A stretch of DNA of 57,868 nt from Magnetococcales bacterium HA3dbin3 (GCA_002753495.1 PEAJ01000001.1:1-57868), one strand, 5' to 3'. Positions 28,006 to 52,618 are shown, counted from the stretch's first letter. The notes: a model not told the origin generated them from the letters alone. Translations and numbers: made by a program.

Positions 28006-28353
28006 TCAGGCGGCATGGAGTGGAATGATCTTCCCGCGCAGTTTCTCAAGCAGCGAATTTTTGGCTGTGTCCATGTCGTATTGAGTTTGCAGGCCAAGCC
28101 AATATTCCGGAGAGTGGTCAAAAAACAGGCCCAGGCGAATGGCCATTTCCGCCGTCACTGGTCTTCTGCCATGCACGATGTGGCTGATCCGCATGGCCGT
28201 TACGCCCACGGCCTTGGCAAGCCGATATTGGGTGATTCCCAATTCATCCATGATTTCCCTCAGGAAAACACCCGGGTGTGTGGGGGGAATGCCCCCTTCC
28301 GTTGCCACGTCAGCGAAGTCGATGTGGGAAAGGTCTTCCATTTGGATCGACAT
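28006..28353 (-). CDS. higA: HigA-family antitoxin (XRE HTH)
   Basis: THPGVFLREIMDELGITQYRLAKAVGVTAMRISHIVHGRRPVTAEMAIRLGLFF. Lies directly downstream of a HigB-like gene. Confidence 0.85.
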   Translation of the reverse strand: MSIQMEDLSHIDFADVATEGGIPPTHPGVFLREIMDELGITQYRLAKAVGVTAMRISHIVHGRRPVTAEMAIRLGLFFDHSPEYWLGLQTQYDMDTAKNSLLEKLRGKIIPLHAA

Positions 28354-28362
28354 GTCAGCCTC

Positions 28363-28644
28363 TCAACGATAATCAACAATTTCCACATCAAAAGCATCGC
28401 TGCCCGCAAACCGGAAGCAGATACGCCATCGGCTGTTGATGCGGATGCTCCACTGTCCCTGTCGATCCCCTTTGTGCGTTTCGAGATGGTTGGATGGGGG
28501 AAGACGCAGGTCGTCAACACGCGACGCCCAATGGATCTGGATCAAACGCATCCGAGCGCGAACGGCAACGTCGGAGGGGAAACCCTTAACGAATATCCCC
28601 GCGAATATCGCCGCGCTCCTCTTATCGGAGAAAGTCTTGATCAC
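28363..28644 (-). CDS. higB: HigB-family toxin (RelE/ParE superfamily, plasmid maintenance system killer type)
   Basis: 93 aa. MIKTFSDKRSAAIFAG...LRLPPSNHLETHKGDRQGQWSIRINSRWRICFRF is typical HigB. Toxin-first gene order. Confidence 0.85.
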   Translation of the reverse strand: MIKTFSDKRSAAIFAGIFVKGFPSDVAVRARMRLIQIHWASRVDDLRLPPSNHLETHKGDRQGQWSIRINSRWRICFRFAGSDAFDVEIVDYR

Positions 28645-30701: not shown

Positions 30702-32509
<1,808 letters not shown>

Positions 32510-32534
32510 TTTTGATTTTACAGGGTTTTCTCTT

Positions 32535-32571
32535 CCGAAAGACCGCCTGCCGCGGCGGTCTTTCGGCGTTT
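32535..32571 (+). terminator. stem-loop terminator after ssrA
   Basis: Perfect 13-bp stem CCGAAAGACCGCC (32535-32547) / GGCGGTCTTTCGG (32554-32566) with a 6-nt loop. The following T-tract is short (cgTTT), so it is only moderately canonical. Confidence 0.55.
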
Positions 32572-32705
32572 AAAAACCCCAATGTTTCCAATGGTTAGTC
32601 ATGACGCTCTTCCCGGGTATCTCCCGAAACCGGACGCCTCTCTCCCCCGCCACCGTCCTTTCTCTTCTCTCTCCCCGCACATTCTCCCCGACCTGTTGAC
32701 TTCGA

Positions 32706-32770
32706 GGCGGGAAGTACGGATTTTCCGTACGTCACTTTTCCATTGAAAAACAATGGGGCGGGAAGTACGG
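32706..32770 (+). repeat. 14-bp perfect direct repeat GGCGGGAAGTACGG (32706-32719 and 32757-32770) flanking two palindromes
   Basis: Read directly from the sequence. Between the repeat copies lie GTACGGA-ttt-TCCGTAC (32714-32730) and CATTG-aaaaa-CAATG (32741-32755). Further GTACG-containing words occur at about 32774-32782 and 32823-32831. Confidence 0.8.
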
Positions 32771-32937
32771 GGTGGGCGTACCTTTTCGATGGCTGGGTTG
32801 GGTGGCGTGGGGGAAGGGAAAAGGGGTACGGGGCAGTGGATGAATTTCGCTGGGTGCCCTTGGTTACCGGTGTTCTGCCATTTCAAATCAACGCACTACG
32901 GTCAATCTTGACGTAAGTCCTTCCTTGGGGGTGGATA

Positions 32938-35900
32938 TTGGCCATTGAAGTTTTCATCTCCTATGCCCATGAGGACAAGAACTTCCGCAAGGCACTCAAT
33001 AACCAGTTGATGCCCCTAAAGCGCGTAGGCTTGGTGTCAGTCTGGCATGACCGCATGATCGCTGCTGGCACAGAATGGGAAAGCCAGATTGATGCGGCAC
33101 TGGAACGCTGCCAGATCGTTCTCCTCCTGGTTAGCCCTAACTTTTTTGCCTCAGATTATTGCTACGGCAAAGAGGCCAAACGGGCACTGGAGCGTCACCA
33201 TGCGGGCGAGGCCAGAGTGATTCCGGTAATCCTGAAGCCTTGCGAATGGCAGATTGATCCCCTCGCTAAACTCCAGGCCTTACCTGAGGACGGCAAGGCG
33301 GTGACCAGTTGGAAAACCCACGACCATGCGTGGGTACAGGTCGCCAAGGCTATCAGGGAAATTGCCACCGAGGGCAGTAAACTTGGCTCCATTTCAAAAT
33401 CCGAGCAATTACTTGAAGAAAGGTGGACTCATTGCCAGGCTGGTGTGTCCGAAAAAGCTGTTGAATGTGCCGAAGAAGCCGCTCGAATCGCCCGCCATGA
33501 GAGTGACAAAAAGACCTTGGTACGGGCACTTCGAAGCGCGGCAAGAGATCTTGGCGATCTCCTGATTTTAGAACGACCTGATGAGTTTGATGCAAAGAAA
33601 ATCACCACCCGTATCGCGTCCCATCTCTCTGAACTCGAAACCTTGGACATTCCGGAGGCGGAACTTTATTTGGAAAAAGCCTTATTCGCTCGACTGGATA
33701 AAAGAGCGAGTGATGCTCTGAAATATGCGGAAGAAGCTGAAACGAAGACGGATAATCCAGAGACGGCAGCCCAGGCACTCTTGGTCCAGCTTCAAGCCTT
33801 TTGGCAATTGAAAACTCCCGAAGCTGGCCTGGCACTGCAAGAACGCATTTCCTCTGTGATGGAGAAAATTGAAAAGGGAAATGCAGGGCTTGTGCTTCAT
33901 GCCAGTTGGCTGCGGACGCTTTGCAAGGCAGCAAAAAGCAACGACGAGGATATTCGGAAGTTCATTGCCCTTGTTCAGGGACTAATTACTGATGGACAAG
34001 AGACCACTGCTCATGCCCTCATTGTAGTCGATGAAGTCGTCTCGGAATTCGGTCGGGCGAACGAATTAGAACGTGTACGATCCCTTCTGAAATTGGCACT
34101 GGAATTAGCACTGTCCATGCGGGAGCCGATGCGCACGGCCACCATCGCTATCCAAACCGCCGAAGTTGAGGCCGAACTGGGTGACGAACTTGAGGCAAGG
34201 AAGCATCTTGGAATCGCGGACAAATGGATCGATACCCTGAAATCCAACGGGGATAAGAAGACATGGTGCCATCGCAAGGCAACGGCTTTGGCCACAAGAG
34301 GAAGGATTGAATCAAGGCTGGCAAGAAAGATTGAAGAATCAGATTATGGACGCTCTCTTCAGCACCGAAGGGCGGCGCACGAATTTTTGAAACAAGCCTT
34401 GGTGTTCATTGATACCCATGAAGCTGATCTGGTCGGAGACTTCGGCCCATTCCGTGCCGATTTATGCCTCCAGTTGGGAAAAGCGGCTTTGGCTTTGGGG
34501 CAACGCCTGGAAGCCGCAGACCATTTCCAACAGGCCAGAACGCATCAGGTCATGGCCGATGAGAGGTTTCAGGAGATCGCTGTCGAGGCATCCATGCGCG
34601 AGGCCGACGCTTTGCTGTTTGGAGGGAAACCCGATGAAGCCAGGACACTTCTGGAAGAAATGGTTGATGCGCCCTGGACCACGGAACGTGTGCGGAATGA
34701 TGTCATAAGGAATATCGGCTGGATTGATGAACACGTTCTTTCTGTTAAGGAATGGATCAAATCAGAAGCTGCTGATAGAATCCGCAACAGTGTCGGCTCG
34801 AATCCTGAAGAACTTCGTCACGTTGTCGCCGAGCAAACTCGCCCCCTTGTCGAATGGTTTCGGGAGTTTCCACCAAAGAAGGGTGCGGGGCACGCTTACT
34901 CGGAACTGTTCGACATATGGGGAAGGGGGGGCTTTAGCCGCATTGTTGCAGCGGCGCAGGGCTATCCCCTCGATTCCATTTCGGTCGATGCCACATGTGT
35001 AGCCGATATCCGTATGTGGGCCAGAGTCTTCTGCCCACTTTACGATACGGTGATCATTAACTGGAAGGGGCCAATGGAAGATGGGCTCGCTCTTGTCCCC
35101 ATGCCGGACAATTTGGGACCACCCGGCGAGTTTGGCGGGCAAGGGTATATCCGGACAAGTGATATGCTGAAAGGAAAGGATGGCTGGCACGTAGCCTGCG
35201 GATGGGGCAACTTTCTTCCCAAAGACGTTTCCGAGTTCCTGGCTACGGAGGCACTTCCTCTCTTCCGCTCCGGTCGGCTTGTCCTTCTTCCCGCCCCCCT
35301 GATAGGTTGTACCCAAAGTGCCATCGGTTGGACGGACAACTTGTTCGTCGACACTTTGCTGGGTGGTGTTGTGAAGACTGCTGGCATGGGGGCGGGAGAC
35401 ATGAGCCCCTCGTCAAGGAAAGCAAAAACCTCCCGTCTTCTTGACCTGAGCGTTGTCAGCCTGCCCTACTTTGATAATGTGCCGTTGAGCATACTCGACC
35501 AAGTCCTGAATGAGATGGTCGAAGGGCTCTTGCCCCTTCGCCGTCTCGTGCAAGAGACTTTGGGAAGCCGCCATCTGCGTGAGGAACGATGGGATGGTCT
35601 GCGCTTCCATTTTACCGACATCCGCGATGCGTTTCGCCAGTTGGATGAACGATACCGAGCCATGGCCGCATCGCGACCGGAAGGGGCAGAATGGCGCATT
35701 TCTGATTTGACGGGAGCCTTCTCGGCTGCTGAGCGACCAAAAGATACCCCGGGTTTAGATCCGATGACTGACCTGCTGCGGTCGATCGCCGGAAGCAAAC
35801 CTGACCTTGGTCCATGGATTCCATTCTGGCGTCTTCGGGAAGCTGGTGGTCAGCTTAATTGGACAAAACCTCTCGATAACCGGAGCGAGCCTCCTGACGA

Positions 35901-35994
35901 GGAGGCGAGACGTCGTGGCTTCTCAAATATTTCCCAGGGGTGGCTTTTCCCAGGGGATGGTGGGCCTGGAATGGCAAGTGCGTTTACGTTCTGA
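32938..35994 (+). CDS. TIR-domain protein with long helical (TPR-like) repeat region and uncharacterised C-terminal domain
   Basis: TTG start preceded by GGGGGTGGA. N-terminus: EVFISYAHEDKNF...CQIVLLLVSPNFFASDYCYGKEAKRALE...VIPVILKPCEW, a TIR fold signature with the putative catalytic Glu at E79. Residues about 150-640 are helical and Leu/Ala/Glu-rich. Residues about 640-1018 are unassigned. I found no Walker A motif. Confidence 0.85.
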   Translation: MAIEVFISYAHEDKNFRKALNNQLMPLKRVGLVSVWHDRMIAAGTEWESQIDAALERCQIVLLLVSPNFFASDYCYGKEAKRALERHHAGEARVIPVILKPCEWQIDPLAKLQALPEDGKAVTSWKTHDHAWVQVAKAIREIATEGSKLGSISKSEQLLEERWTHCQAGVSEKAVECAEEAARIARHESDKKTLVRALRSAARDLGDLLILERPDEFDAKKITTRIASHLSELETLDIPEAELYLEKALFARLDKRASDALKYAEEAETKTDNPETAAQALLVQLQAFWQLKTPEAGLALQERISSVMEKIEKGNAGLVLHASWLRTLCKAAKSNDEDIRKFIALVQGLITDGQETTAHALIVVDEVVSEFGRANELERVRSLLKLALELALSMREPMRTATIAIQTAEVEAELGDELEARKHLGIADKWIDTLKSNGDKKTWCHRKATALATRGRIESRLARKIEESDYGRSLQHRRAAHEFLKQALVFIDTHEADLVGDFGPFRADLCLQLGKAALALGQRLEAADHFQQARTHQVMADERFQEIAVEASMREADALLFGGKPDEARTLLEEMVDAPWTTERVRNDVIRNIGWIDEHVLSVKEWIKSEAADRIRNSVGSNPEELRHVVAEQTRPLVEWFREFPPKKGAGHAYSELFDIWGRGGFSRIVAAAQGYPLDSISVDATCVADIRMWARVFCPLYDTVIINWKGPMEDGLALVPMPDNLGPPGEFGGQGYIRTSDMLKGKDGWHVACGWGNFLPKDVSEFLATEALPLFRSGRLVLLPAPLIGCTQSAIGWTDNLFVDTLLGGVVKTAGMGAGDMSPSSRKAKTSRLLDLSVVSLPYFDNVPLSILDQVLNEMVEGLLPLRRLVQETLGSRHLREERWDGLRFHFTDIRDAFRQLDERYRAMAASRPEGAEWRISDLTGAFSAAERPKDTPGLDPMTDLLRSIAGSKPDLGPWIPFWRLREAGGQLNWTKPLDNRSEPPDEEARRRGFSNISQGWLFPGDGGPGMASAFTF

Positions 35995-36068
35995 GTGGCT
36001 TCGCCGCAGCGTAGGGGATCTCCAGCACCCAGCAGATCCACAGAGATCACCCACCGAGTCAGTCAGCA

Positions 36069-36800
36069 ATGGCTGATAGGGACTCGGAACAGAAATGGAT
36101 CATCGGGGCCGCTGATCGCCTTCACGCATCTCTTCAAGGAGACCTTTCCCTTGAAGAGTGCAGAAGCCGAATTCGGGATATACTCAAAAGTGTGCCCGTT
36201 CCTCCAGGATGGCTCTTGAAAGAAGTGGTGGAAAGGTGGGCTGAAAAGGGCGGCGTGGACCCTGTGATCATGTTCATGGTCGAGAACTACTATCTGACCT
36301 TTCATCCGGGTCGGGGAGTTCGCCAATCCATGCGGGGCACCACACCCAACGGAAAATTGTCCGCTGAACTCAACCGCAAAGTGGTTTTACAACTCAACCG
36401 GGGTCGGGGCGATCTTTATGAAAAAGGCTACGGGGCCAACTTTGTCGTCCATGCCCTGGAAAACCGATTTCCTGGGAAGCCAGTCAGGGTTCAGGAGGAG
36501 GTCAGAGTCATCACGGTTCCCAATAGGAACGGCAGGACGTGTCGGCGTCGCTATGATATCTTTGCCCAAGTAACTGACCGAAATATCGGGGTGGAAATCA
36601 AATCAGGCCGTATCTACCGCTCCCGTTTCATCCGGGAGCAGATCGCCAAGGATGCGGCTCTGTTGAAGAGTTCAGCCATTGATGAATGTTACCGGCTTCT
36701 GTTTCGTGGTGCCTCCGGCGGGGTGCTCGGCTCCCTGGAACGGGCGGGCATTTCTTTTTTCGATTTTGCTTTCGATGTGGAAAATGAACTGACCCCGTAG
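36069..36800 (+). CDS. hypothetical protein with PD-(D/E)xK nuclease-like motif
   Basis: 243 aa, same strand, 74 nt after the TIR gene. E131 (HALEN), D163 (RRYDIFAQV) and E176-I-K178 (IGVEIKSG) have the spacing of a restriction-endonuclease-like core. There is no obvious SD before ATG 36069, so the start is uncertain. Confidence 0.6.
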   Translation: MADRDSEQKWIIGAADRLHASLQGDLSLEECRSRIRDILKSVPVPPGWLLKEVVERWAEKGGVDPVIMFMVENYYLTFHPGRGVRQSMRGTTPNGKLSAELNRKVVLQLNRGRGDLYEKGYGANFVVHALENRFPGKPVRVQEEVRVITVPNRNGRTCRRRYDIFAQVTDRNIGVEIKSGRIYRSRFIREQIAKDAALLKSSAIDECYRLLFRGASGGVLGSLERAGISFFDFAFDVENELTP

Positions 36801-36909
36801 AATTCAGGGGACACGTGCGCCGTGACAAATCGCAATTTCTCAGCGGGTGAGATTCCCCCCCCCCGGCAACTATCGTTCCAGCCGGTAGCAACAGCGGGTA
36901 TGGGCTGAT

Positions 36910-37323
36910 TCATGTCTTACCTTCAAACCTCCACTTCTCCCTCTGCTCGCTCCACACCATGGGAAACGGTTCCATGAGGTCAGCCAGGGTGAGAGTTGCC
37001 GGTTGCCGCCCGTCCAGGATGGCCTCCACGATGTCCGGAGCCAGCAGGGTCAGGCGCAGGATGCGGGAGATGTAGGAGTCGTTGAGTTTCTCCTGTTCCG
37101 CCAGCTCCGTCATGGTGGAGACCTTGCCCGACTCCAGCATTCTCAACCACCGGTGGGCGCGGCCCAGGGCCTTGAGCATGGCCTGATGGGGCGATGGCGG
37201 GGGTGGCGCCCATTCGGGAGCGCCGGGAGGGGCGATGATCTCCGTTTTTCCGCCCCAGGTCTTGAGGCGCATGGGAATGCGCACGATCAGGGTCTGGCCG
37301 TCTTCGCTCAAGGTCGCTTTCAT
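36910..37323 (-). CDS. recombinase-associated small protein (HTH-like C-terminus)
   Basis: 137 aa. The start overlaps the recombinase stop (ATGA). ELAEQEKLNDSYISRILRLTLLAPDIVEAILDG is a block I recall from genes next to serine recombinases in integrative elements. Confidence 0.6.
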   Translation of the reverse strand: MKATLSEDGQTLIVRIPMRLKTWGGKTEIIAPPGAPEWAPPPPSPHQAMLKALGRAHRWLRMLESGKVSTMTELAEQEKLNDSYISRILRLTLLAPDIVEAILDGRQPATLTLADLMEPFPMVWSEQREKWRFEGKT

Positions 37324-38645
37324 GTCACGTGCCTCCCCTCGCCATCACCCTGCTCCAGTTCCGCCAGCAGGCTCTTCAAGCCACCAGCCCGCAAATGCAC
37401 CTCCACCCCCTGACCGCTCACCTCTACCCGCCCCACCAGCAATTGCAGCAACCGCGCCTGCTCCAGGGGAAAAAGTTCGTCCCACAGGGTTTCCAGATTG
37501 CGCAGGGACTCCATCACCTTGCGCTCCGGCGCCCCGCCTTCTTCCCCGTCCATGGCCTGGAAGGTCCGAACCATCACCTCCGGCGTGCGCAGGAGTCCAC
37601 GCACCTGTTCGAAGGCCACCCGCTCCACCTCTCCGGCAGCCACGGTGCGCAGAGGGCAGGTTTCCCGACCGTTCTTGTCCGCGCCTTGGCAGGTGTAGTA
37701 GCGATAGAGCTTGCCACCCTTGCGGGTGAAACTGGGCCGCATGGCCCGGTCGCAATGGCGGCAGCGGATGATCCCCTTGAGCGGCGCGGGGGTCTGCACC
37801 CGGGCCGGGCCCGGACGCTGGCGGTTGTTGCTCTCCAGGATGGCGTGGACCCGCTCCCACAACTCCCGGTCGATGATCCCCTGGTGCTCCCCGGCGTAGA
37901 TCTCGCCATGGTAGGCGACCTCGCCCAGGTAGAGCCGGTTGTTGAGCATCCGGTAGATCGCCCCCTTGTCCAGGGGCTTGCCGGATTTGCCCGTGGCTTC
38001 CGCCTCGGCCAGCTCCTTGACCAGCAGGGTGGCGGAACCGATCTCCGCGAACCGGAGGAAGAGCTGGCGCACCGTCCCGGCCTCGGCGGCGTTGACCACC
38101 AGCTTGCGTTCCCGAACGTCGTAGCCCAGGGGCGGATGGCCGCCCATCCACATCCCCTTGCGCTTCGACGCCGCGAACTTGTCCCGGATGCGCTCTGCCG
38201 AAAGCTCTCTTTCGAATTGCGAGAACGAGAGCAGGATGTTCAGCGTCAGCCGCCCCATGGAGGTGGTGGTATTGAAAGACTGGGTGACGCTGACGAAGGT
38301 GACGCCGTGCCGCTCGAAGACCTCCACCAGCTTGCCGAAATCCATCAGGGAGCGGGTCAGCCGGTCGATCTTGTAGACCACCACCACGTTGACCTTGCCC
38401 TTTTCAATATCGTCCATCAGCCGTTTCAAAGCGGGCCGTTCCAGGTTGCCGCCGGAGAAGCCGCCGTCGTCGTAGCGGTCGGGCACCAGGAACCAACCCT
38501 CGCCCTTCTGGCTGACGATGTAGGCTTCGCAGGATTCCCGCTGGGCGTCGAGGCTGTTGAACTCCATGTCCAATCCCTCGTCGGTGGATTTCCGGGTGTA
38601 GACGGCGCACCGCACCTTGGGCGTCACCGGTTTTCTGGCGTTCAT
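37320..38645 (-). CDS. large serine recombinase (resolvase/invertase N-terminal domain plus recombinase domain plus zinc ribbon)
   Basis: ORF 37320..39014, from ATG 38645. RCAVYTRKSTDEGLDMEFNSLDAQRE (catalytic Ser region), DRLTRS, and a CRHCDRAM...YYTC Zn-ribbon-like block. The start overlaps the DUF2924 stop (ATGA). Confidence 0.9.
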   Translation of the reverse strand: MNARKPVTPKVRCAVYTRKSTDEGLDMEFNSLDAQRESCEAYIVSQKGEGWFLVPDRYDDGGFSGGNLERPALKRLMDDIEKGKVNVVVVYKIDRLTRSLMDFGKLVEVFERHGVTFVSVTQSFNTTTSMGRLTLNILLSFSQFERELSAERIRDKFAASKRKGMWMGGHPPLGYDVRERKLVVNAAEAGTVRQLFLRFAEIGSATLLVKELAEAEATGKSGKPLDKGAIYRMLNNRLYLGEVAYHGEIYAGEHQGIIDRELWERVHAILESNNRQRPGPARVQTPAPLKGIIRCRHCDRAMRPSFTRKGGKLYRYYTCQGADKNGRETCPLRTVAAGEVERVAFEQVRGLLRTPEVMVRTFQAMDGEEGGAPERKVMESLRNLETLWDELFPLEQARLLQLLVGRVEVSGQGVEVHLRAGGLKSLLAELEQGDGEGRHVT

Positions 38646-39082
38646 GCCTTGTCTCCCTGTTTCTTGAGCGCGAAAAAGACCAGGCCGTTCCATTTGGTGC
38701 CGGTGATGGCGGTGGCCACCGCTGACAGGCTCCCGAACCGCCGCCCCTGGTATTCGAAACCGTCGTCCAGCACAGTGCAGCAGTGCTCCACCCCCTTCCA
38801 CTCCCGCACCAGCCGGGTGCCGGGCAGCAACCGCTCTCCCGGAGGCCGTTTCTTCTCCGGCGGGGCCTCCTCTTCGGCGGCCAGCCGCTCCAGCCGTTTC
38901 TCGCTCCTTTCCGACAGGCCGCCGTGGGCCAGTTCCTGGATGCGGTAGGCCAGCCTCTTCACCAGGAAAGCCTTGTTGTACGGCGGCGGCTCCGACTGGC
39001 ACAGCTCCTTCCACATCTTCTTCAATTCGGCGGCGGACATCCCCGGCAGGGCCGCCACCCGTTGCAACGTGTCACTCCTCAT
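38642..39082 (-). CDS. DUF2924-family protein (serine-recombinase partner)
   Basis: 146 aa. LPGMSAAELKKMWKELCQSEPPPYNKAFLVKRLAYRIQELAHGGL...PGTRLVREWKGVEHCCTVLDDGFEYQGRRFGSLSAVATAITGTKWNG matches DUF2924 from memory. Confidence 0.8.
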   Translation of the reverse strand: MRSDTLQRVAALPGMSAAELKKMWKELCQSEPPPYNKAFLVKRLAYRIQELAHGGLSERSEKRLERLAAEEEAPPEKKRPPGERLLPGTRLVREWKGVEHCCTVLDDGFEYQGRRFGSLSAVATAITGTKWNGLVFFALKKQGDKA

Positions 39083-39398: not shown

Positions 39399-39824
39399 AT
39401 GATCGAGACATGGAAGACGGTGGGGGCGATGGCAGGGAATCCTGAGTTCGGCAGGCGGGTGCGGGAGTTGCGGGAGGCCAGGAAGACGACCGATCCGGAG
39501 TTCTCCCTGCGCCGGTTCGCCGTGGCGGTGGGCATCAGCGCCACCTTCATGAGCAAGGTGGAAAACGGCGAGTTCGACCCGCCTGCCGTGGACAAGATCA
39601 AGCGCATGGCGGTCCTGTTGGAGGTCGATTCGGACGAGCTGCTGGCCCTGGCGGGCAAGGTGGACCCGGATCTGCCGGAGATCATCCGTGAGCAACCCAA
39701 GGCCATGGCGGATTTTCTGCGCACGGCGCGGGAGATGGGCTTGGGGTCCGGCGAAATCAATGCCCTGACCAGTATGATCCGGGCATATGGCCAACCCAGG
39801 CGGAATTCTGGGGAGAAACCATGA
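39399..39824 (+). CDS. XRE-family HTH transcriptional regulator (phage repressor-like)
   Basis: FGRRVRELREARKTTDPEFSLRRFAVAVGISATFMSKVENGEFDPP is an XRE HTH. The alternative start ATG 39429 has a GGTGG SD-like element; 39399 would be near-leaderless. Confidence 0.8.
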   Translation: MIETWKTVGAMAGNPEFGRRVRELREARKTTDPEFSLRRFAVAVGISATFMSKVENGEFDPPAVDKIKRMAVLLEVDSDELLALAGKVDPDLPEIIREQPKAMADFLRTAREMGLGSGEINALTSMIRAYGQPRRNSGEKP

Positions 39825-40516
39825 ACGTGAAGTACCTGCGCAAGGAGGAGAGCGAAGCCGCCTCGCGTCGGTTGCTCCTCGCCTATCATGAACGATTCGG
39901 CCCGGACGGGTATCTGCCCATTCCGGTGGAGGAAATCCTGGAATCCCATCTCGGCCTCACCCTGGAGTTCGACGACCTGCGCCGCCGTCTCGGCGTGGCG
40001 GACGTCCTGGGCGCGACCTGGGTCAAGGAGCGACGGGTGGTGATCGATCAGTCCCTGGACCCCACGGTGGACTCCAGGAAGGAGGGCCGCTACCGCTTCA
40101 CCATCGCCCACGAGCTGGGACACTGGGAACTGCACCGGCATGTTTTCGAGGACGCTCCCGGCCAGGGAAGCCTATTCGAGCATGATACACCGCCCTCCAT
40201 CGTTTGCCGCACCGGCTCCCGCAAGGATCCCATGGAGTGGCAGGCGGATGTCTTCGCCAGCTATCTGCTGATGCCGGGGAAGATGGTGAACGAGGCCTGG
40301 GAGTCGATCTATGGCACCCAGGAACCCTACGGGGCGGCGGATGAACTTGCCGATCTTGCACGGAAGGTGGTTGGGGACGTCGGTCAGCCGGTGGTGGGGG
40401 TTGCCCGCGAGGTGGCCAGGGAGTTCCGCGTCTCGGGAACTGCCATGCAGATCCGTCTCGTCGACATGGGACTGATCCGTATGGAAAAAACCCTGCCCGG
40501 CTTGTTCCCGGAGTGA
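39821..40516 (+). CDS. ImmA/IrrE-family (COG2856) zinc metallopeptidase
   Basis: 231 aa. HELGHWELH (HExxH) and EWQADVFASYLLMP are typical of ImmA/IrrE. 4-nt overlap with the XRE gene. Confidence 0.85.
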   Translation: MNVKYLRKEESEAASRRLLLAYHERFGPDGYLPIPVEEILESHLGLTLEFDDLRRRLGVADVLGATWVKERRVVIDQSLDPTVDSRKEGRYRFTIAHELGHWELHRHVFEDAPGQGSLFEHDTPPSIVCRTGSRKDPMEWQADVFASYLLMPGKMVNEAWESIYGTQEPYGAADELADLARKVVGDVGQPVVGVAREVAREFRVSGTAMQIRLVDMGLIRMEKTLPGLFPE

Positions 40517-40590
40517 GAGTCAGTTCCATTTTTTTGTGTGGATTGTTTATGGTTCAATTAACGCAACAGAATCGATGCAGAGGGTGAGCC

Positions 40591-41823
40591 ATGGTGGACA
40601 TTGCCGAAACCCTGGCGCGGGTGAACGCGCCGCCGCCGGAATTCTGGGAGAACGACCTGGAAATGGGGCTGGGTCACCTGCTGCCGGATCTGGAGCGGGA
40701 CGAAGCCCGCGAGGAATGGCTCGGACGCCTGAGCGGGCGGCAGCTGGAGATGGTCTGTGCCGGGCTGGACCTGCCGGTGGAGGAACGGGTGCGGGACCGG
40801 CGGGAGGTGTTGCGCGGTCTGAACGGCCAACTCCTCCCCTTTCTGCTGGTGGACCGCTTCTCCCACATGAAATCGCGGGTGGCGGTGGTCGAGTTCGCCA
40901 GAAAGAAGTTGCCCGTCTCCGTGATCGAGGCCTGCCAAATCAACGAGGAGGACCACGACGCCAAGGCGCTGCTGTTCGCCCTCTACGGCAACGATCCGGT
41001 GGATTTGCGGCAGGTCTTCCATCTGGAAAAGATTCAGAAGACCGGTTTCGCCCGCATGTCCCTGACCACCTCCGTCAAGCCGTCCGGGGAAGCCTTCACC
41101 GACTTTCTGACTCCCGAACGCATTCATGCCCTGCTCGCCACCTTCGACCGGGAGCGGAACGACCACCGCACCAGCGAGTTCCGCGAGGTGCTGGTGGAAG
41201 ACGGGCGGCCTTTGCTGTTCATCCGTCGGGCCGAACGGCCCAGCCTGATCGTGAAGACGGTGGGGGTGGAGCACGGCTTCCATCCCGAATGGATCATCCT
41301 CGATTTTTCCGCCGACGCCCGCCGAGTGCGCATCTCCTCCACCAGCCCCGCCGTGCCCCTGGAGATCGCCAACCGCGTGGCCGGGGCCTTCTTCGGTGAG
41401 GAATGCGAATACGCCAATGAAAGCGAGGAGAGCTACGGTGAGCAACTGCGGCGTTTTCTGCGGCGCCTCGCAGACGGTCGGGCCGAACAGTTGGAATTCG
41501 TGGAGATCGCCCTGGAGCGGTCGCCCCTGGACGGCTCCAGCAAGCTGACGATTTCCGATGTCCTCTCCATCCGCAAGGCAGTGGCCCATTTCACCCTGGC
41601 GGTGGGCGATATTCTGTCGGAAGTCACCAACATCAAGGGGATCAAGGTCTCCTACCGGGAGAAGCGGGTGGGGCTGATTTTCGAACCGACTGGGAACGAC
41701 CGTTTCGTGGTCCGCTACACCGATCAGCGGCTGAACACCAAGGAACGCGCCGCCTTCGAGGAATTGATGAGGAATGACCATGGCCTCCCGGTCCTCTCCA
41801 CCGAAAAGCGCGTCCGGCGCTGA
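40591..41823 (+). CDS. hypothetical protein (410 aa), no recognisable domain
   Basis: Balanced amino-acid composition and GAGGGTGAG upstream of the ATG. The long antisense ORF 40558..42012 looks like a shadow (Gly/Pro/His/Gln-rich). Confidence 0.65.
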   Translation: MVDIAETLARVNAPPPEFWENDLEMGLGHLLPDLERDEAREEWLGRLSGRQLEMVCAGLDLPVEERVRDRREVLRGLNGQLLPFLLVDRFSHMKSRVAVVEFARKKLPVSVIEACQINEEDHDAKALLFALYGNDPVDLRQVFHLEKIQKTGFARMSLTTSVKPSGEAFTDFLTPERIHALLATFDRERNDHRTSEFREVLVEDGRPLLFIRRAERPSLIVKTVGVEHGFHPEWIILDFSADARRVRISSTSPAVPLEIANRVAGAFFGEECEYANESEESYGEQLRRFLRRLADGRAEQLEFVEIALERSPLDGSSKLTISDVLSIRKAVAHFTLAVGDILSEVTNIKGIKVSYREKRVGLIFEPTGNDRFVVRYTDQRLNTKERAAFEELMRNDHGLPVLSTEKRVRR

Positions 41824-42946
41824 TCCTGGCGCCATCGAGCGGCTGCTGCGGGAGGGCTGGACCATCGCCGATCCTGATCCGGCGGCTCTGGACGCCGCCG
41901 CCCGGCTGGAGCGGCTTGGGCTGGTGGAGATCGACTGCCGGGAGTTCGTCCGCTGCGCCGAACCGCTGGACGAGGATTTTCCCCCGCCGGTGCGGGATTG
42001 CCAGGGCCGCATCCTGCTTCGGGCCGGACTGGACGAAGGGGACGACGCCTTTCGTTGTCCTGACTGCGAGCGTCCCGTTTACCCCCTTCTCTACGGCAAG
42101 CGGCGGTGCGCGGAGATGCGCAGCAGGGTGAAGCCCGAGGGTGTGGCCGCTTTTCTCCACGACGAACTGGACTCCCTGGGTGTGGTACGGCGGCTGGCCG
42201 AGGGGGTGTTCCGGGTCGAGACGGGTTACGGGGAAGCCCTGGTCTGTCTGGTGGAGCTGTGCCGCGATCCCCGTTATCTGTCCCGCGACCATGCCCGCAT
42301 GCATCCCACCCTCTTTGTCGCCATCGATGCCCGCAATCTGAAGGAGCGTTTTCTTCCCGACCCCTGGCTGGTCCGGGCGACTCTGGCCGACGTTGTGACA
42401 GGATCCACCGAGCTGCCTGCTCTCCTGGACGATCTCCTCGCCCGGGAAACGCCTTCGACCCTGGTCAACGCCTCCCTGCCGGTCTACGACAAGGTGGTTC
42501 CGGCGCTTTTGCCCAGCCCTGCCTCCGGGCCGCAACGCCGTCAGTTCATGGTGGAGTTCGCGTCGGACCGGCTCCTGGTCGAGGATGCCGTGGTGGCGAC
42601 GGCCAAGGCCGGGATGCAGCTCCAGGTGTTCGGCATCCTGTGGCGGCGCTTTCTGGAGGATCTGGCGGCGGGTCGGTCGCCGGATGATTTCCGGCCCATC
42701 AGCCTGAAAGAACTCACCAACGTCATCGATCCTGGGGACAAGAGCGAGGCCATCGACGAAATGAACGTCCGACGAGCCATCAACCGCCTGCAGCAGGATC
42801 TGTCGGAGACCGTGCGCCGGGAACTGGGGTTGCCCCTGGGACGAGAGGACATCATCCAGAACCTCCGCGATGGCCAGCGCCGCAGAGGCAACGGCTACCG
42901 CATCAACCCCCGCATGGTTCTGCCCAGGGTGTCATCCCCCTCCTGA
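41774..42946 (+). CDS. hypothetical protein (390 aa) with a CxxC...CxxC-like segment and a basic C-terminus
   Basis: DCQGRILLRAGLDEGDDAFRCPDCERPVYPLLYGKRRC hints at a Zn-binding element. The start is uncertain: ATG 41774 or 41780 overlaps the upstream gene by about 45-50 nt. Confidence 0.6.
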   Translation: MTMASRSSPPKSASGADPGAIERLLREGWTIADPDPAALDAAARLERLGLVEIDCREFVRCAEPLDEDFPPPVRDCQGRILLRAGLDEGDDAFRCPDCERPVYPLLYGKRRCAEMRSRVKPEGVAAFLHDELDSLGVVRRLAEGVFRVETGYGEALVCLVELCRDPRYLSRDHARMHPTLFVAIDARNLKERFLPDPWLVRATLADVVTGSTELPALLDDLLARETPSTLVNASLPVYDKVVPALLPSPASGPQRRQFMVEFASDRLLVEDAVVATAKAGMQLQVFGILWRRFLEDLAAGRSPDDFRPISLKELTNVIDPGDKSEAIDEMNVRRAINRLQQDLSETVRRELGLPLGREDIIQNLRDGQRRRGNGYRINPRMVLPRVSSPS

Positions 42947-43030
42947 CAACGGCGAAAGCCCACCCCATCCTCGGCCCCGCGCACCCCGCCCGGGGCCGTT
43001 GCCATTTCATGGCCGGGAGGTTCTGCCGGA

Positions 43031-43194
43031 CCATCTGTCTCCTTTTCCCTCCATGTGTCTCGAATTCCGCCGTGCCCTGAGGGCGGGCCATAAGCCCCGT
43101 CCAGGCCATCTGTCTCTGTTTCGTTCCATCTGTCTCGAAATCCGTCACCGACCCTGATTCCATGCGCCCTCCGCAAACCCATCTGTCTCGAAAA
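43031..43194 (+). repeat. five same-orientation copies of CCAT(C/G)TGTCTC, extended consensus CCATCTGTCTCGAAAtCCG
   Basis: Copies start at 43031, 43051 (CCATGTGTCTCGAATTCCG), 43106, 43126 (CCATCTGTCTCGAAATCCG) and 43179 (CCATCTGTCTCGAAAATCG). Spacings are 20, 55, 20 and 53 nt. The array sits in the 333-nt gap before the sigma-like gene. Confidence 0.85.
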
Positions 43195-43279
43195 TCGCCG
43201 ACCTGTCCTCAAAACCGACGCCTCGAAACGGGAAAATCCGGCCATACCAACGGAACAACCCGCAGGCCGGAACAAGACC

Positions 43280-43825
43280 ATGAATTCGAGAAACCACTAC
43301 CCCGACCTTCACGGCGAGGCCGTCCGGGTCATCCGCTTCAAGGCCGGACAGCTTTCCCGATTGCCCTGTTTCACCAGGGCGGATGTGGAGGATCTGGAAC
43401 AGGAACTGGCCATGGATCTGCTGCGGCGTTTGCCCTGGTTCGACCCCTCGCGGGCCGGGTTGGCCACCTTCCTCGACCGGATCGTTGGCCATCGCGCCGC
43501 CAACCTGGTGGCCGGGGCCATGGCCAAACGCCGGGGCGGCGGGTTGACCCTCGTCTCCGTGGACGATCTGGAATCGGGGGACGACCAGGAAACAACGCTG
43601 GACTCCCCGAACCAGGAGCGCGTCGAACTGGGGGTGGAGGTGCGCCGACTCCTGGGGCGGTTGCCGGAGGAGCATCGTCACCTCTGCCACCTGCTCATGG
43701 CGGTGGACAAGCCGGAGATCCCCCGGCGACTGGGCGTGAGCCGCGCCACCTTCTATCGCCGCCTTGCGGAGGTTCGCGGATTCTTCCGCGATGCAGGGCT
43801 GGAAGAAATCGCTATGGCCGCGTGA
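43280..43825 (+). CDS. ECF/sigma-70-like RNA polymerase sigma factor
   Basis: 181 aa. DLEQELAMDLLRRL...LATFLDRIVGHRAANLV is region-2-like. LPEEHRHLCHLLM...IPRRLGVSRATFYRRLAEVR is a region-4 HTH. Confidence 0.65.
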   Translation: MNSRNHYPDLHGEAVRVIRFKAGQLSRLPCFTRADVEDLEQELAMDLLRRLPWFDPSRAGLATFLDRIVGHRAANLVAGAMAKRRGGGLTLVSVDDLESGDDQETTLDSPNQERVELGVEVRRLLGRLPEEHRHLCHLLMAVDKPEIPRRLGVSRATFYRRLAEVRGFFRDAGLEEIAMAA

Positions 43826-43903
43826 GACGGTTTTCGGAGATCGCCGGTAAGTATCCCAAGAGAAGGCACGAAACGCTCGACGACTTGAAAAGGAGAGACG
43901 GCG

Positions 43904-44176
43904 GTGGAACCGGAAAAGGCGCTCTGGATGGCGGTGCTCGAACAGGCGGTCAAGGACGCCCGTGCCCTCATCCGCAGGGCCAAGGCCGATCCGACGCTGT
44001 GGGACAGCCCGTCCTTCCGGGGAGAGGTGAAGTCCCTGAGGCGTTGGTTCCTCGCCAAATCCCAGCATCCGGGAGGCTTCGGCTTCGTTTGCGATCTCGC
44101 GGGCCTCGACCCGGAACGGGCGCTGGCCCGCATCGATGAGAAGTACCTCCGGCATTTGACGCCGGAGATTGGATAG
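43904..44176 (+). CDS. hypothetical phage protein
   Basis: 90 aa. GTG start 8 nt after AGGAG (43891-43895). Confidence 0.55.
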   Translation: MEPEKALWMAVLEQAVKDARALIRRAKADPTLWDSPSFRGEVKSLRRWFLAKSQHPGGFGFVCDLAGLDPERALARIDEKYLRHLTPEIG

Positions 44177-44210
44177 ACCCCCAGACCTTTGCCAAACAAG
44201 GAGATTGAAG

Positions 44211-44696
44211 ATGGAACACCCCATCCCTCTCGAAACCCTGCCGGAGTTGCCCCCGGCACAGCTTGCGGCCCTGCCGGTGGACCAGTTGGCCGCACTGTTG
44301 GACGAAGCCGATGCCCATCTGCGCCGGGCCAGGGCGATCAAGGAGAGCCTGGACGAGGCCGTCGCCCACCGTTACGGCGACCGCGCCGCCCTGGTGCGCA
44401 ACCAGAATCAGAAGCCCACCGGCATCGTCCGCTTCGATGACGGCCCCTTCGTCGTCATCGCCGACCTTCCCAAGAAGCCGGAGTGGGATCAGGAGCGGCT
44501 GGCCGCCATTGTCGGGCAGATCAGCGAATCAGGCGAGAACGCACTGGACTATGTCGAGGTCGCCTACCGGGTGCCGGAGAGTCGCTACAACGCCTGGCCC
44601 GCCTCCATTCGGAAGTTCTTCGAGGCCGCCCGCACCCTCAAGGTCGGCAAACCCACCTTCAAGCTCGAACGGCCTGCGGGCCGGGGAGGATTCTGA
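44211..44696 (+). CDS. hypothetical phage protein
   Basis: Within ORF 44169..44696. ATG 44211 follows AAGGAGA. Precedes the Sak4-like ATPase, with a TGATG junction. Confidence 0.6.
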   Translation: MEHPIPLETLPELPPAQLAALPVDQLAALLDEADAHLRRARAIKESLDEAVAHRYGDRAALVRNQNQKPTGIVRFDDGPFVVIADLPKKPEWDQERLAAIVGQISESGENALDYVEVAYRVPESRYNAWPASIRKFFEAARTLKVGKPTFKLERPAGRGGF

Positions 44697-45457
44697 TGGC
44701 CATTTCCCTCGCTTCCCTCAATCGCCAACAGGCGGTTCTGCCGCCCCGCATCCTGGTCTACGGCGTGGCCGGGGTGGGCAAGAGCACCCTGGGAGCGTGC
44801 GCTCCCAACCCGGTTTTCATCCTCACCGAGGACGGGCTGGGGCTGCTCCAGGTCACCAGTTTTCCCCTGGCCCGCACCTTCGGTGAGGTGCTGGAGGCCC
44901 TGGACAGCCTGCTGGCCGAAAACCACGACTTCGAGACCGTGGTGCTGGATTCCCTGGATTGGCTCGAACCCCTGATCTGGTCCGAGGTGTGCCGCCTCAA
45001 CCGAGTCAACAGCATCGAGGACATGGGGTATGGAAAGGGCTACGTCGCCGCCCTGGACCTCTGGCGCTCCTACCTGGATCGCCTCAACCGGCTGCGTTCG
45101 GAGAAGAACATGGTGGTGGTGCAGATCGCCCACGCCACCATCCGGCGCTTCGATTCCCCGGAGCACGACCCCTTCGACCGCTACGACGTCAAGCTGCACC
45201 AGAAAGCCGCCGCCCTGGTCCAGGAGCACAGCGATTGTGTCCTGTTCGCCAATTACCGGGTGGCGGTGACCAAGGCGGAGGTCGGTTTCGGACAGCGGGT
45301 CAACCGCGCCGTCGGCACCGGCGAGCGCCTGCTCTTCACCCAGGAACGGCCCGCCTTTCTGGCCAAGAACCGTTACAACCTGCCCGGCGAGCTGCCCATG
45401 GACTGGACCACCCTCCAGGCCCACCTCACCGGCGATCATCAGACCCAAGCCGCATAA
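44696..45457 (+). CDS. phage AAA/RecA-like ATPase (Sak4-type single-strand annealing/recombination protein)
   Basis: Within ORF 44483..45457. ILVYGVAGVGKSTL (Walker A) and TVVLDSLD (Walker B-like). Its length and context next to DUF669 are typical of Sak4-like proteins. Confidence 0.75.
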   Translation: MAISLASLNRQQAVLPPRILVYGVAGVGKSTLGACAPNPVFILTEDGLGLLQVTSFPLARTFGEVLEALDSLLAENHDFETVVLDSLDWLEPLIWSEVCRLNRVNSIEDMGYGKGYVAALDLWRSYLDRLNRLRSEKNMVVVQIAHATIRRFDSPEHDPFDRYDVKLHQKAAALVQEHSDCVLFANYRVAVTKAEVGFGQRVNRAVGTGERLLFTQERPAFLAKNRYNLPGELPMDWTTLQAHLTGDHQTQAA

Positions 45458-45468
45458 GGAGACAACTC

Positions 45469-45999
45469 ATGGCACAACTCGGCGGAACCTTCGACGCCTC
45501 CCAGGTGGACCCCTCCCAGCCCCACGAGACGCTGCCCCCCGGCGACTACCGGGTGCAGATCGTCAACAGCGAGATGCGGGCCACCAAGACCGGAACCGGC
45601 CAATACCTCTGGCTGGAGATGGACATCCTGGACGGACCCCTGGCCGGGCGGAAGCTCTTCGACCGGCTCAACCTGGTCAACCCCAACCGGCAGGCGGAAG
45701 AGATCGCGCAACGCACCCTCTCGGCCATCTGCCACGCCGTGGGACGGATGCAGGTGGCCGACTCGGAGGAACTCCACTTCAAGCCGCTGCTGGTGAAAGT
45801 GGCGGTGGGCAAGACCGGTTACAACGAAACGAAGGGCTACAAGCCCGTAGCCAACGCCGCTCCCGCGCCGCGACCGGCTTTTCAGCCGCCGCAGGCCCAG
45901 CAGGCTCCCCAGCCGCAACCGGCGCAACAACCCGCCGCCCAGGCTTCCCGTCCCGCGCCCGCCGCCGGTGGGGTTGGTCCCTGGCGGAGGATGGGGTGA
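45469..45999 (+). CDS. DUF669-family phage protein (SSB-like partner of Sak4)
   Basis: Within ORF 44959..45999. FDASQVDPSQPHETLPPGDYRVQIVNSEMRATKTGTGQYLWLEMDILDGPLAGRKLFDRLNLVNPN matches DUF669 from memory. The tail is Pro/Gln/Ala-rich. Confidence 0.8.
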   Translation: MAQLGGTFDASQVDPSQPHETLPPGDYRVQIVNSEMRATKTGTGQYLWLEMDILDGPLAGRKLFDRLNLVNPNRQAEEIAQRTLSAICHAVGRMQVADSEELHFKPLLVKVAVGKTGYNETKGYKPVANAAPAPRPAFQPPQAQQAPQPQPAQQPAAQASRPAPAAGGVGPWRRMG

Positions 46000-46089
46000 G
46001 GAAAATAAGCGGGCGGGACCGTCAACCATTCGCTGCCAGGCACCGGTGACGGCCCGCCCCATCCAAGGCTTCAATTTTGGAGAAGACCC

Positions 46090-46482
46090 ATGGACACTGC
46101 CATCCTGAACCATCGGGATGAGCGGGACAAGACCCCCTTGCCCGCGACTCGGGAGGAGTGCCGCGCCCGGCTCATCCAATTGCAATCCGACATCGCCGCC
46201 ATCCGCGACCAGATCGCCGCCGCCGACCTGGACCGTCAGGCCCGGGGAGGCCAGATGGATGCTGGCTGGTACCACCGCGCCCGTACCGCCCTGCGCTTCA
46301 AACGGGAAGAGCTGGCCCGGCTCCAGGCCCATCAGCGCACCCTGCCCGGCGGCCCCGCCGAGCGCAAGGAGCGGCTGCGGGAGTGCATCATCGCCGCCGT
46401 CCGCCCCGACTACAACGACGACGAATGGCGCGAGGTGATGGACGAGGCCCATCGCCTGCTGTTGGGCCAGGGGGGTGCGTGA
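46090..46482 (+). CDS. hypothetical phage protein
   Basis: 130 aa. GGAGA lies upstream. The stop/start junction with the next gene is TGATG. Confidence 0.55.
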   Translation: MDTAILNHRDERDKTPLPATREECRARLIQLQSDIAAIRDQIAAADLDRQARGGQMDAGWYHRARTALRFKREELARLQAHQRTLPGGPAERKERLRECIIAAVRPDYNDDEWREVMDEAHRLLLGQGGA

Positions 46483-49009: not shown

Positions 49010-49208
49010 TCCCACCGAACGCGAGCAGGCGGCCCTGCGCGCCGCCGCCCCCCTGGCCGGGGAATACGTCGAGAGCCTGGGCAAGACCGACCTCACCCTT
49101 TTCACGGTGGAGGAGTTCCTCACCCTGATCCGAGTGATCGTCGGGGCCTACCTGGAAGCCAAGGCCCGCTTGGATATCAACGACACCTGGGACGATGTCC
49201 CGTTTTGA
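49002..49208 (+). CDS. hypothetical phage protein
   Basis: 68 aa. Overlaps the helicase stop by 8 nt. Confidence 0.5.
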   Translation: MVDPTEREQAALRAAAPLAGEYVESLGKTDLTLFTVEEFLTLIRVIVGAYLEAKARLDINDTWDDVPF

Positions 49209-49225
49209 GCGAAGGAACAAAGAGC

Positions 49226-49951: not shown

Positions 49952-49965
49952 AAGGAGAGACGACT

Positions 49966-52266: not shown

Positions 52267-52618
52267 CCCGGGAAACACCCGGCAAGTCCGTCATGTGCCT
52301 CCCGGTGACGAACTTGCCGGTGCAACACCATGAAATTACATCGGAAATAGTGAACGTGGCAGGCGTCAACCGTAGGAAAAAAAAGAAGAAGGTAAATGCT
52401 CTATACATATTCTCTATATATAAAGGGCTTTTTTACCAGAGGTTGACTCATTGACAGATCATGATTTTCTTTTTTGTTTCATATGGATGAAAGGAAAGAA
52501 CCAGTCATCCAGGCTGGTTTGACGGATTGAACGCACCAAAACCCCGCAGAGCGACGGATCAGGGATCGGCCTCCCGCTCCATCGCCCTCACCCAACATCA
52601 CCACAAGGAGTGAGGACG

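Follow-up and report, generated by a model that had tools for sequence, protein, structure and literature searches.

Organization of the ORF1-ORF2 locus

The DNA analysed here is a stretch of 57,868 nt from Magnetococcales bacterium HA3dbin3 (GCA_002753495.1 PEAJ01000001.1:1-57868), referred to below as the window, and all coordinates are those of the window as a whole unless another locus is named. Two adjacent open reading frames (ORFs) lie on its plus strand. ORF1 (32938-35994) begins with a TTG start codon and encodes a protein of 1018 aa with an N-terminal TIR domain, and ORF2 (36069-36800) begins with an ATG start codon and encodes a protein of 243 aa. The gap between them is 74 nt. The exact ORF1 protein (P0001) is annotated by NCBI as a TIR-domain protein of a Magnetococcales metagenome-assembled genome (MAG). 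The original prediction for this region described the two genes as a cassette forming a candidate new anti-phage defence system; the coordinates, lengths, spacing and common strand that it gave all proved correct. The analysis reported below retains ORF1 on its own, without the cassette, as a candidate new defence protein, in which a TIR head is joined to the body of a rare protein family.

Domain organization of ORF1

The first 156 residues of ORF1 (32938-33405, plus strand) constitute the TIR head, which was delimited using Pfam, PADLOC and an alignment with Cat1 and which appears to be a swapped-in effector module. The N-terminal TIR domain that had been predicted was borne out by matches to Pfam TIR_2 over aa 5-114 (E=3.8e-20, 73 bits against a cutoff of 28) and to Pfam TIR (E=1.2e-7). 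The PADLOC ThsB1 model PDLC00420 matched with E=2e-54 over aa 4-145 only, that is, over a 142-aa TIR region of a 1018-aa protein. The SAVED_TIR model of PADLOC likewise matched ORF1 only via the TIR region (aa 4-155), as did the Aga_TIR models, which gave a weak match (E=0.0013, aa 5-100). The best sequence match among solved structures was to Cat1 (PDB 9mud; E=3e-6). In this alignment E79, encoded by GAG at 33172-33174 and previously named as the Glu at the catalytic position, aligns with the Glu of 'SDWCWDELEQA' in Cat1, which would place it at the canonical 'C-x-x-E' position. ORF1 thus combines the profile match expected of the TIR superfamily with what appears to be its conserved Glu after the third strand (the 'C/W-x-x-E' position). 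The closest TIR sequences, at 50-62% identity, are the N-terminal heads of NB-ARC, NACHT, Roc-COR-LRR, CHAT, TPR, trypsin and helicase-methylase proteins, and judging from these relatives the TIR subtype of ORF1 is one that is shuffled among conflict systems.

The TIR head is followed by a TPR-like helical repeat region of approximately 480 aa (aa 157-635; 33406-34842, plus strand), which was defined from alignment A1 and from TPR matches. Since all of these matches were below threshold, for example TPR_16 with E=0.002, the earlier description of about 500 aa of 'TPR-like' helices is a fair one. The remaining 383 residues (aa 636-1018; 34843-35994, plus strand) form a C-terminal domain (CTD) that was delimited from alignments A1, A2 and A3 and from an AlphaFold2 model. 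It contains the conserved motifs DIWGRGG, FCPxYD, WKG, GPPGxFGGQGY, GWxN, SGR, GCTQxxxGWxD, LGGVVK, GPWxPxW and QGWLxPGDGGPG. Within the family, mean pairwise identity amounts to 54% for the helical region, 75% over aa 636-820 and 61% over aa 836-1011, making the CTD the most constrained part of the protein. Divergent CTD members with 39-42% identity retain WKG, GR, GCTQ, GW.D and several of the Gly and Pro positions. ORF1 itself is an intact frame of 1018 codons in which every family-invariant residue is kept.

It had been noted that the C-terminal ~380 aa could not be assigned, and this held in every search that was made. Nothing was found in Pfam at E<=10 when 13 individual CTD sequences of alignment A2 were scanned, and matches of ORF1 to PADLOC, NCBIfam and PHROGs were confined to the TIR region. 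Profile searches of the PDB gave nothing significant, whether the profile was that of the CTD, of the full-length alignment or of the nuclease head of related proteins (see below). The AlphaFold2 model of the CTD (pLDDT 70.5, pTM 0.81) shows a domain of mixed alpha/beta structure and, after it, a helical hairpin, and a Foldseek search with this model found no match in the PDB or BFVD (best E 2.1 and 0.85, respectively, with TM-scores of ~0.1). No CTD match was obtained by tblastn against 72,556 plasmids and 50,697 phage genomes, and no CTD relatives were found in IMG/VR viral contigs. The fold of the CTD is either new or past the reach of the tools used. A Walker A motif (GxxxxGK[ST]) is absent from ORF1, and no NTPase family match was found in Pfam, PADLOC or NCBIfam.

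The ORF1 body family and its exchangeable heads

ORF1 belongs to a rare family of approximately 35 protein clusters among 5.8 billion proteins. The first homologue search returned about 20 proteins of 1023-1145 aa with 52-76% identity, which covered only ~85% of ORF1 and none of which contained a TIR domain. A CTD profile search of the 5.8 billion proteins added only 13 more clusters, some of them at 39-42% identity. In alignment A1 the body is conserved from aa 158 to the C-terminus, and the first 150-280 aa differ among members. Most members carry a ~170-aa Mrr-like nuclease head with the pattern 'FEEMCCALL...GRPREPQFGIDV...V.SCKC', which was recognized using Mrr_cat and Mrr_cat_2: in 11 non-PNP heads scanned, Mrr_cat was detected in four (best E=2.2e-4) and Mrr_cat_2 in three (best E=1.5e-4), matches that are weak but recurrent. 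A nuclease-type head was also present in all seven of the eight further metagenomic loci that include the 5' part of the gene, the eighth (L030) being cut at the contig end. Two members, P0013 and P0016, have a PNP_UDP_1 nucleosidase head instead (E=1e-17 to 1e-19), and that of P0013 also matches the PADLOC CBASS 'Effector PN-superfamily' model. ORF1 is the only member in which the head is a TIR domain (Pfam TIR_2).

The boundary between head and body is also visible in the DNA. With every relative, the homology of ORF1 has a sharp onset at nt 33404-33412 (aa 157/158) and extends as far as the stop codon; it is strongest with L008, at 80.7% identity over 2576 nt. Because this homology begins so abruptly, the TIR head is read from the sequence comparison as a module spliced onto a pre-existing body at aa 157. 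Variable N-terminal regions are characteristic of conflict systems, for which restriction endonuclease (including Mrr-like), PNPase and TIR effectors have been listed (Kaur et al. 2020, PMC7159879).

A divergent branch of the body family, made up of P0127, P0130 and P0132 (L014 115-2112), consists of proteins of 644-715 aa with 39-42% CTD identity and no recognizable effector head. P0132 begins with Met, and in two assemblies the start of P0127 is 69-115 nt away from the contig ends. These proteins may be head-less forms, or their effector may be encoded separately.

Genomic context of the ORF1 relatives

The 17 body-homologue loci that were fetched (L001-L009 and L025-L032) represent ~13 distinct genes, ~11 of them with readable downstream DNA, and several of the contigs are short; that of the closest relative, P0002, stops 47 nt past the stop codon. 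The body relatives sit in defence islands or mobile elements and adjoin Abi, restriction-modification (R-M), STAND, TIR and SIR2 genes as well as integrases. The neighbours identified were a caspase and an integrase (L001); AbiEi/AbiEii, DUF6361, an integrase and MobA (L003); Abi_C, HsdR and an RNaseH-helicase (L004); HsdS, AbiJ-Abi_C, DUF4365, HsdR and nSTAND3 (L005); two TIR genes, a HEPN-TPR gene and an NYN gene (L006); SIR2_2 (L007); and a Schlafen-like ATPase with an integrase (L009). The gene of the divergent branch on L014 also has an integrase as neighbour. In an all-against-all comparison of the neighbours at the body loci, nothing was conserved save integrases and HsdR.

ORF2 and its relatives

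A word-indexed homologue search with ORF2 found only ORF2 itself. Its family was recovered by an exhaustive phmmer comparison with 1.84 billion representatives, which yielded 36 relatives, most of them ~240 aa in length. The best of these has 44% identity (E=6.5e-43), and 17 match at E<=1e-10. Among 25 aligned members of the family, N110, G114, E118, D163, E176, K178, S179, D195 and G214 are invariant, and R113, R160, G180, Q191 and I192 are nearly so. Of the PD-(D/E)xK residues that had been proposed for ORF2, D163 (36555-36557), E176 (36594-36596) and K178 (36600-36602) are thus upheld by all 25 sequences; E131 is not conserved, and the invariant acidic residue upstream is instead E118 (36420-36422), which forms part of an 'RGxLYE' motif. 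Together with Q191, these are the core residues identified from the family alignment.

ORF2 has no significant sequence match to solved structures or to Pfam, PADLOC, NCBIfam or PHROG families, and PADLOC found no match among its homologues either. The AlphaFold2 model (pLDDT 88.2) shows an N-terminal four-helix domain (~aa 4-86), a long helix and a beta-sheet core, with the nuclease core occupying ~aa 99-235. The best Foldseek matches of this model were all PD-(D/E)xK nucleases, namely Can2, AF1548, VC1899, NucS/EndoMS, AspBHI, Bax1 and Hjc; the top matches had probabilities of 0.92-1.00 (1.00 for both AF1548 and NucS) with marginal E-values of ~2e-3 to 3e-2. The structural model therefore points to a restriction-endonuclease-like alpha/beta fold, in line with the nuclease originally proposed, and ORF2 is, as modelled, a nuclease-fold gene of a rare unannotated family. 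The nuclease domain of Can2/Card1, AF1548, NucS/EndoMS and Hjc have in common with ORF2 both the fold and the E...D...ExK arrangement with a conserved Gln, whereas the N-terminal domain of ORF2 is a four-helix bundle, unlike the CARF domain of Can2/Card1. Classification of ORF2 as a CARF-nuclease was rejected, since it is via the nuclease domain that the Can2 matches align, and the N-terminal part of ORF2 is a bundle of helices.

The ORF2-family motif was not found in viral contigs. In a MAG labelled 'uncultured Staphylococcus', an 892-aa ORF (L023 1240-3918) matches the hidden Markov model (HMM) of the ORF2 family with E=2.2e-12, the motif lying at 3682-3774; this ORF also has weak DUF4595 and DUF4225 matches. 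The ORF2-type nuclease core may therefore also occur as a fusion.

Linkage of ORF1 and ORF2

The two families were not found together at any other locus. Searches by tblastn and HMM detected an ORF2-family gene in none of the 17 body-homologue loci, and a body-family gene adjoins none of 12 ORF2-family loci, further examples of which were located using a degenerate DNA pattern. The genes beside the ORF2 relatives are unrelated to ORF1 and differ from locus to locus. The closest relative of ORF2, P0134 (44% identity), is flanked on both sides by ~970-aa NACHT-HEAT genes and shares a 17-nt overlap with the downstream one (L010 3986-10655), with NB-ARC-WD40, KAP NTPase, HNH and ankyrin genes also nearby; this arrangement could be a sensor-plus-nuclease operon. 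Other ORF2-family genes lie beside HepT/MNT (L011), on a plasmid-like contig (L012, L013) and close to an MTase-SNF2 gene (L024). In L017 the family member follows an ApeA HEPN gene, and in L019 and L022 it has an AAA_13 ATPase on its upstream side and an Eco57I/MmeI-type enzyme on its downstream side. Apart from ORF2 itself, just one member of the family was seen next to a TIR gene: in a Desulfamplus MAG (L016 3544-7998), an unrelated 434-aa TIR_2 protein (PDC-S66/bSEFIR-like according to PADLOC) is encoded 209 nt downstream of the ORF2-family gene and is followed by HEC-01A/B genes.

Because the two families are not consistently linked elsewhere, an outcome that the original prediction had itself named as refuting, an obligate two-gene cassette is not supported, and this part of the original prediction was abandoned. 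ORF2 is a member of a separate, rare defence-island family; the gene probably arrived together with ORF1, of which it is not an obligate partner.

Integration site and flanking regions

The genes flanking ORF1 are murA, the transfer-messenger RNA (tmRNA) gene, ORF2, a 137-aa ORF and a serine recombinase. The tmRNA gene (ssrA; 32140-32509, plus strand), an integration hotspot directly upstream of the ORF1 locus, was identified by ARAGORN and by Rfam RF00023 (106.8 bits, E=4.8e-41). A permuted-tmRNA match (RF04321, 59.9 bits) at 32100-32268 overlaps the 5' part of this standard tmRNA and is outscored by RF00023. The GC content at third codon positions (GC3) is 0.55 in ORF1 and 0.58 in ORF2, compared with 0.73-0.85 in host genes and 0.78-0.88 in prophage genes, and the two ORFs form a discrete islet of ~4.2 kb between the tmRNA flank and a convergent prophage operon. 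Because ORF1 sits between the tmRNA gene and a serine-integrase prophage operon, it is regarded as an accessory gene carried at the edge of a prophage that is integrated beside ssrA.

The native flank 3' of the tmRNA gene (32510-32700, no strand assigned) was recognized by collinear short matches to a second Magnetococcales MAG, GCA_015234115.1 (locus L005). Positions 32502-32532 of the window correspond to L005 14593-14623 (31 nt at 96.8% identity), and short matches continue to ~32700, so that the last ~8 nt of the tmRNA gene and ~190 nt of flank recur at L005 14593-14800. In GCA_015234115.1 this shared flank follows a tmRNA 3'-end remnant of attR-like appearance and marks the right-hand edge of an island containing a type I R-M system, AbiJ, DUF4365, the body-family member P0015 and nSTAND3. 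The common tmRNA-flank sequence therefore indicates that two members of the body family occupy the same ssrA hotspot in related genomes.

Between the flank and ORF1 is a non-coding region (32701-32937, plus strand) with repeats, hairpins and a ribosome-binding site. The sequence GGCGGGAAGTACGG occurs twice in it as a direct repeat (32706-32719 and 32757-32770), 160-230 nt upstream of the TIR gene, and each copy leads into a short hairpin (GTACGGATTTTCCGTAC / GTACGGGGTGGGCGTAC; 32706-32781) that was flagged by a terminator scan. The repeats and hairpins could be a putative operator, att site or terminator pair. A putative purine-rich ribosome-binding site, GGGGGTGGA, can be read directly 5' of the ORF1 TTG codon. 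The scan of 32.4-37.5 kb for sigma-70-like promoters found none, a result that is uninformative, and the terminator scan found no terminator-like site in the 74-nt gap between ORF1 and ORF2.

The left arm of the prophage (36910-39082, minus strand) is convergent with ORF1 and ORF2 and consists of the 137-aa gene, a large serine recombinase and a DUF2924 gene, with Pfam matches to Resolvase (E=3.9e-37), Recombinase, Zn_ribbon_recom and DUF2924 (E=2.7e-54). The true start of the recombinase is likely an internal one at ~38645. The 3' ends of ORF2 and of the 137-aa prophage gene converge with 109 nt between them, and this gap contains a run of 10 C (36855-36864), which could be a hotspot for slippage or assembly error. 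The rest of the prophage (39399-57868, plus strand), as delineated by Pfam scans, continues past the end of the window and encodes an XRE repressor with an ImmA/M78 peptidase, AAA_24, PDDEXK_1, an SNF2-type helicase, Prim-Pol/PriCT_2/DUF3987, an M15 peptidase and a ParB-N6 methylase; ORFs 40591-41823, 41774-42946 and 43145-44341 have no Pfam match. A search for an attR (a duplicated tmRNA 3' end) inside the window, beyond which the prophage extends, found none.

Two other features of the window were recorded. Approximately 4 kb upstream of the tmRNA gene, on the minus strand, there is a pair (28006-28644) of a HigB-like toxin (28363-28644) and a helix-turn-helix antitoxin (28006-28353). A second low-GC patch lies at 7001-8623 (GC 0.52-0.57, compared with ~0.62-0.66 around it), in which the ORF at 7244-8623 has a GC3 of 0.62; this patch may be another acquired segment.

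Proposed function of ORF1 and alternative explanations

On balance, ORF1 is probably a stand-alone, single-polypeptide sensor-effector defence protein of a rare and undescribed family, and the earlier idea of a sensor body coupled to a TIR effector is retained as the best interpretation. In the mechanism proposed here, the body (repeats plus CTD) would detect an infection cue and shift its oligomeric state, and this change would bring the N-terminal heads together. The clustered TIR domains would then form composite active sites around E79 and hydrolyse NAD+, and the infected cell would be arrested or killed, resulting in abortive infection. The nuclease-headed relatives would follow the same logic by cutting DNA, and the PNP-headed relatives by degrading ATP. 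The domain content, the swapping of heads, the rarity, the genomic contexts and the missing linkage with ORF2 are shown by the data above; sensing, oligomerization, NADase activity and phage protection are properties that we infer for ORF1.

By analogy, the TIR domain of ORF1 is most likely an NAD+-depleting terminal effector, since the other heads found at the same position, nuclease and PNP, serve in other defence systems as direct terminal effectors, as do TIR NADases such as Cat1. Mrr-type nucleases have this role in Avs proteins. The solved Cat1 entries are filaments, as stated by the words 'pentagonal filament' in the entry names, and the NADase of Cat1 is switched on through filament assembly. 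PNP-family ATP nucleosidases are described as terminal effectors of other defence systems in a preprint (bioRxiv 10.1101/2023.01.24.525353). With respect to the body, the unusually strong conservation of the CTD argues that this domain is a switch, ligand-binding or oligomerization module rather than a fast-evolving sensor of phage proteins, and the more variable TPR-like region may do the sensing.

Several points weigh against this interpretation. The defence role of ORF1 is deduced from genomic context and architecture. A CTD with 75% identity is unusual for a phage-sensing domain, which would normally diversify; the CTD may be an enzyme, a switch or an oligomerization module, and a sensing function is speculative. 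As the TIR domain scores best against the ThsB model, and ThsB makes signals rather than depleting NAD+, a signalling role is possible. Only one member of the family is TIR-headed, leaving no comparison from which its partner needs could be judged. The family sample is small (~35 clusters) and several contigs are short. Finally, the common strand, the 74-nt gap with no terminator-like site and the atypical GC3 of both genes would also fit an operon.

A broader proposal, which we put forward tentatively and hold to be rather doubtful, is that the TPR-like region and CTD together constitute a new, NTPase-independent immune receptor chassis able to drive any head, whether nuclease, ATP nucleosidase or TIR NADase, with ORF1 as its sole known TIR-armed version. 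The CTD would in that case replace the STAND ATPase as the ligand-binding and oligomerization switch, and a phosphorylated ligand would be in keeping with its conserved Gly-rich loops and its Arg, Lys and Asp residues.

It is unlikely that ORF1 and ORF2 are a true two-gene system at this locus, in which the TIR protein would sense infection and either make an NAD+-derived signal that activates ORF2 or recruit ORF2 as a second effector, in the manner of Thoeris with a nuclease replacing ThsA. Besides the operon-like features just listed, such a system would be consistent with the GC3 of both genes being distinct from that of host and prophage, with the discrete islet that they form between the tmRNA flank and the convergent prophage operon, and with the best score of the ORF1 TIR domain being on the ThsB model. 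The ORF2 homologue upstream of the 434-aa TIR protein in the Desulfamplus MAG, and the one embedded between two NACHT sensor genes, also point in this direction. However, the ORF2 family is found in 0/17 body-homologue loci, where the neighbours vary, and ORF2-family genes occur with no TIR nearby at ApeA, AAA_13 plus R-M, MTase-SNF2, HepT/MNT and plasmid genes. ORF2 also has none of the known nucleotide-signal sensor domains (SLOG, Macro, SAVED, CARF), its N-terminal domain being a four-helix bundle in the model, and the heads of the ORF1 relatives are terminal effectors, which argues for the same role of the TIR domain here.

Equally improbable is that two independent genes are stacked in one hotspot, with ORF2 as an autonomous, solitary nuclease toxin or restriction-like gene; ORF1 would then act as proposed above, and to this extent the two explanations overlap. 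The ORF2 family is found in many different defence-island contexts, and its members are compact (~240 aa) with a fully conserved catalytic core, as would be expected of such a gene. However, an active nuclease that stood alone, with neither an inhibitor nor a methylase in view, would be toxic, and the ORF2-family gene is almost always directly downstream of a larger gene in the same orientation, hinting at dependence on its neighbour.

An origin outside immunity, with ORF1 as an addiction or competition module of the mobile element, a regulatory scaffold, or a TIR-headed copy that is a recent non-functional or decaying chimera, would account for the singleton architecture, the TTG start, the extreme rarity of the family and a position at a prophage border that also collects junk, but is very improbable given the intact 1018-codon frame with all family-invariant residues kept, the Glu at the catalytic position, the good putative ribosome-binding site before the start codon and the recurrent occurrence of the relatives among bona fide defence genes.

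If ORF1 belongs to a working defence system, it would represent a receptor architecture that delivers the usual abortive-infection effectors (nuclease, ATP nucleosidase, TIR NADase) with no STAND NTPase, on which other sensors of this type depend. Its 383-aa CTD, for which no relatives could be detected, would then bring a new fold and a new ligand. The residue-precise natural swap of heads is a ready-made experiment on the control of three different effectors by one sensor body. ORF2 defines a second small, unannotated defence-island family. With respect to annotation, the label 'TIR protein' hides 85% of ORF1, and partnership with the adjacent nuclease should not be taken for granted.

Comparison with known defence systems

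As originally proposed, ORF1 fits no named TIR system: the scanned adjacent genes include no SIR2/SLOG/Macro ThsA, no SAVED/CD-NTase, no Argonaute/APAZ and no STAND NTPase or Walker A motif. In library scans with PADLOC, Pfam and NCBIfam, the body was absent from all three, and no named system was recovered beyond the TIR region.

The TIR domain of ORF1 may resemble Thoeris ThsB, as it matches the ThsB1 model and has a Glu that appears to occupy the catalytic position. ThsB proteins are small stand-alone TIR proteins, whereas the match in ORF1 spans a small N-terminal part of a long polypeptide and there is no adjacent ThsA. Membership of Thoeris was rejected, as no ThsA (SIR2-SLOG or TM-Macro) is encoded among the flanking genes. 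ORF1 was also rejected as a CBASS/Pycsar TIR effector, since it shows no SAVED domain beyond the TIR-region match and no cyclase is present among the scanned neighbours, and as a SPARTA or short pAgo TIR-APAZ protein, since there is no APAZ domain and no Argonaute in the flanks.

Cat1 (CRISPR-associated TIR 1, 9mud) is comparable through the conserved Glu that aligns with E79. It is a CARF-TIR protein activated by cyclic oligoadenylate, whereas ORF1 has no CARF domain and no CRISPR context. BcTir/BcTpr is an anti-phage two-gene system consisting of a TIR protein and a glycosidase-TPR protein, in which the TPR region modulates catalysis (bioRxiv 10.1101/2023.05.26.542521). Compared by description only, it has an NAD+-cleaving N-terminal head fused to a TPR region, as proposed for ORF1, but differs in comprising two genes, in that the NADase is not the TIR protein, and in that no similar CTD is described.

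The closest parallel in overall design is with the STAND sensors (Avs/AVAST, bNACHT and TIR-STAND). Like ORF1, these are single large polypeptides with a swappable N-terminal effector, helical repeats and a C-terminal region, and they have the defence-island and mobile-element context in common with the ORF1 family. TIR, Mrr-like restriction endonuclease and PNP, the three heads found on the ORF1 body, are in the effector repertoire listed by surveys of conflict systems (PMC7159879; bioRxiv 10.1101/2022.07.19.500537). ORF1 differs from the STAND sensors in having no NACHT, NB-ARC or AAA match and no Walker A motif, and in carrying instead the conserved 383-aa CTD. Because the defining NTPase is absent, membership of TIR-STAND, Avs or bNACHT was rejected, and ORF1 is best described as a candidate modular effector-sensor immune protein built on an undescribed chassis.

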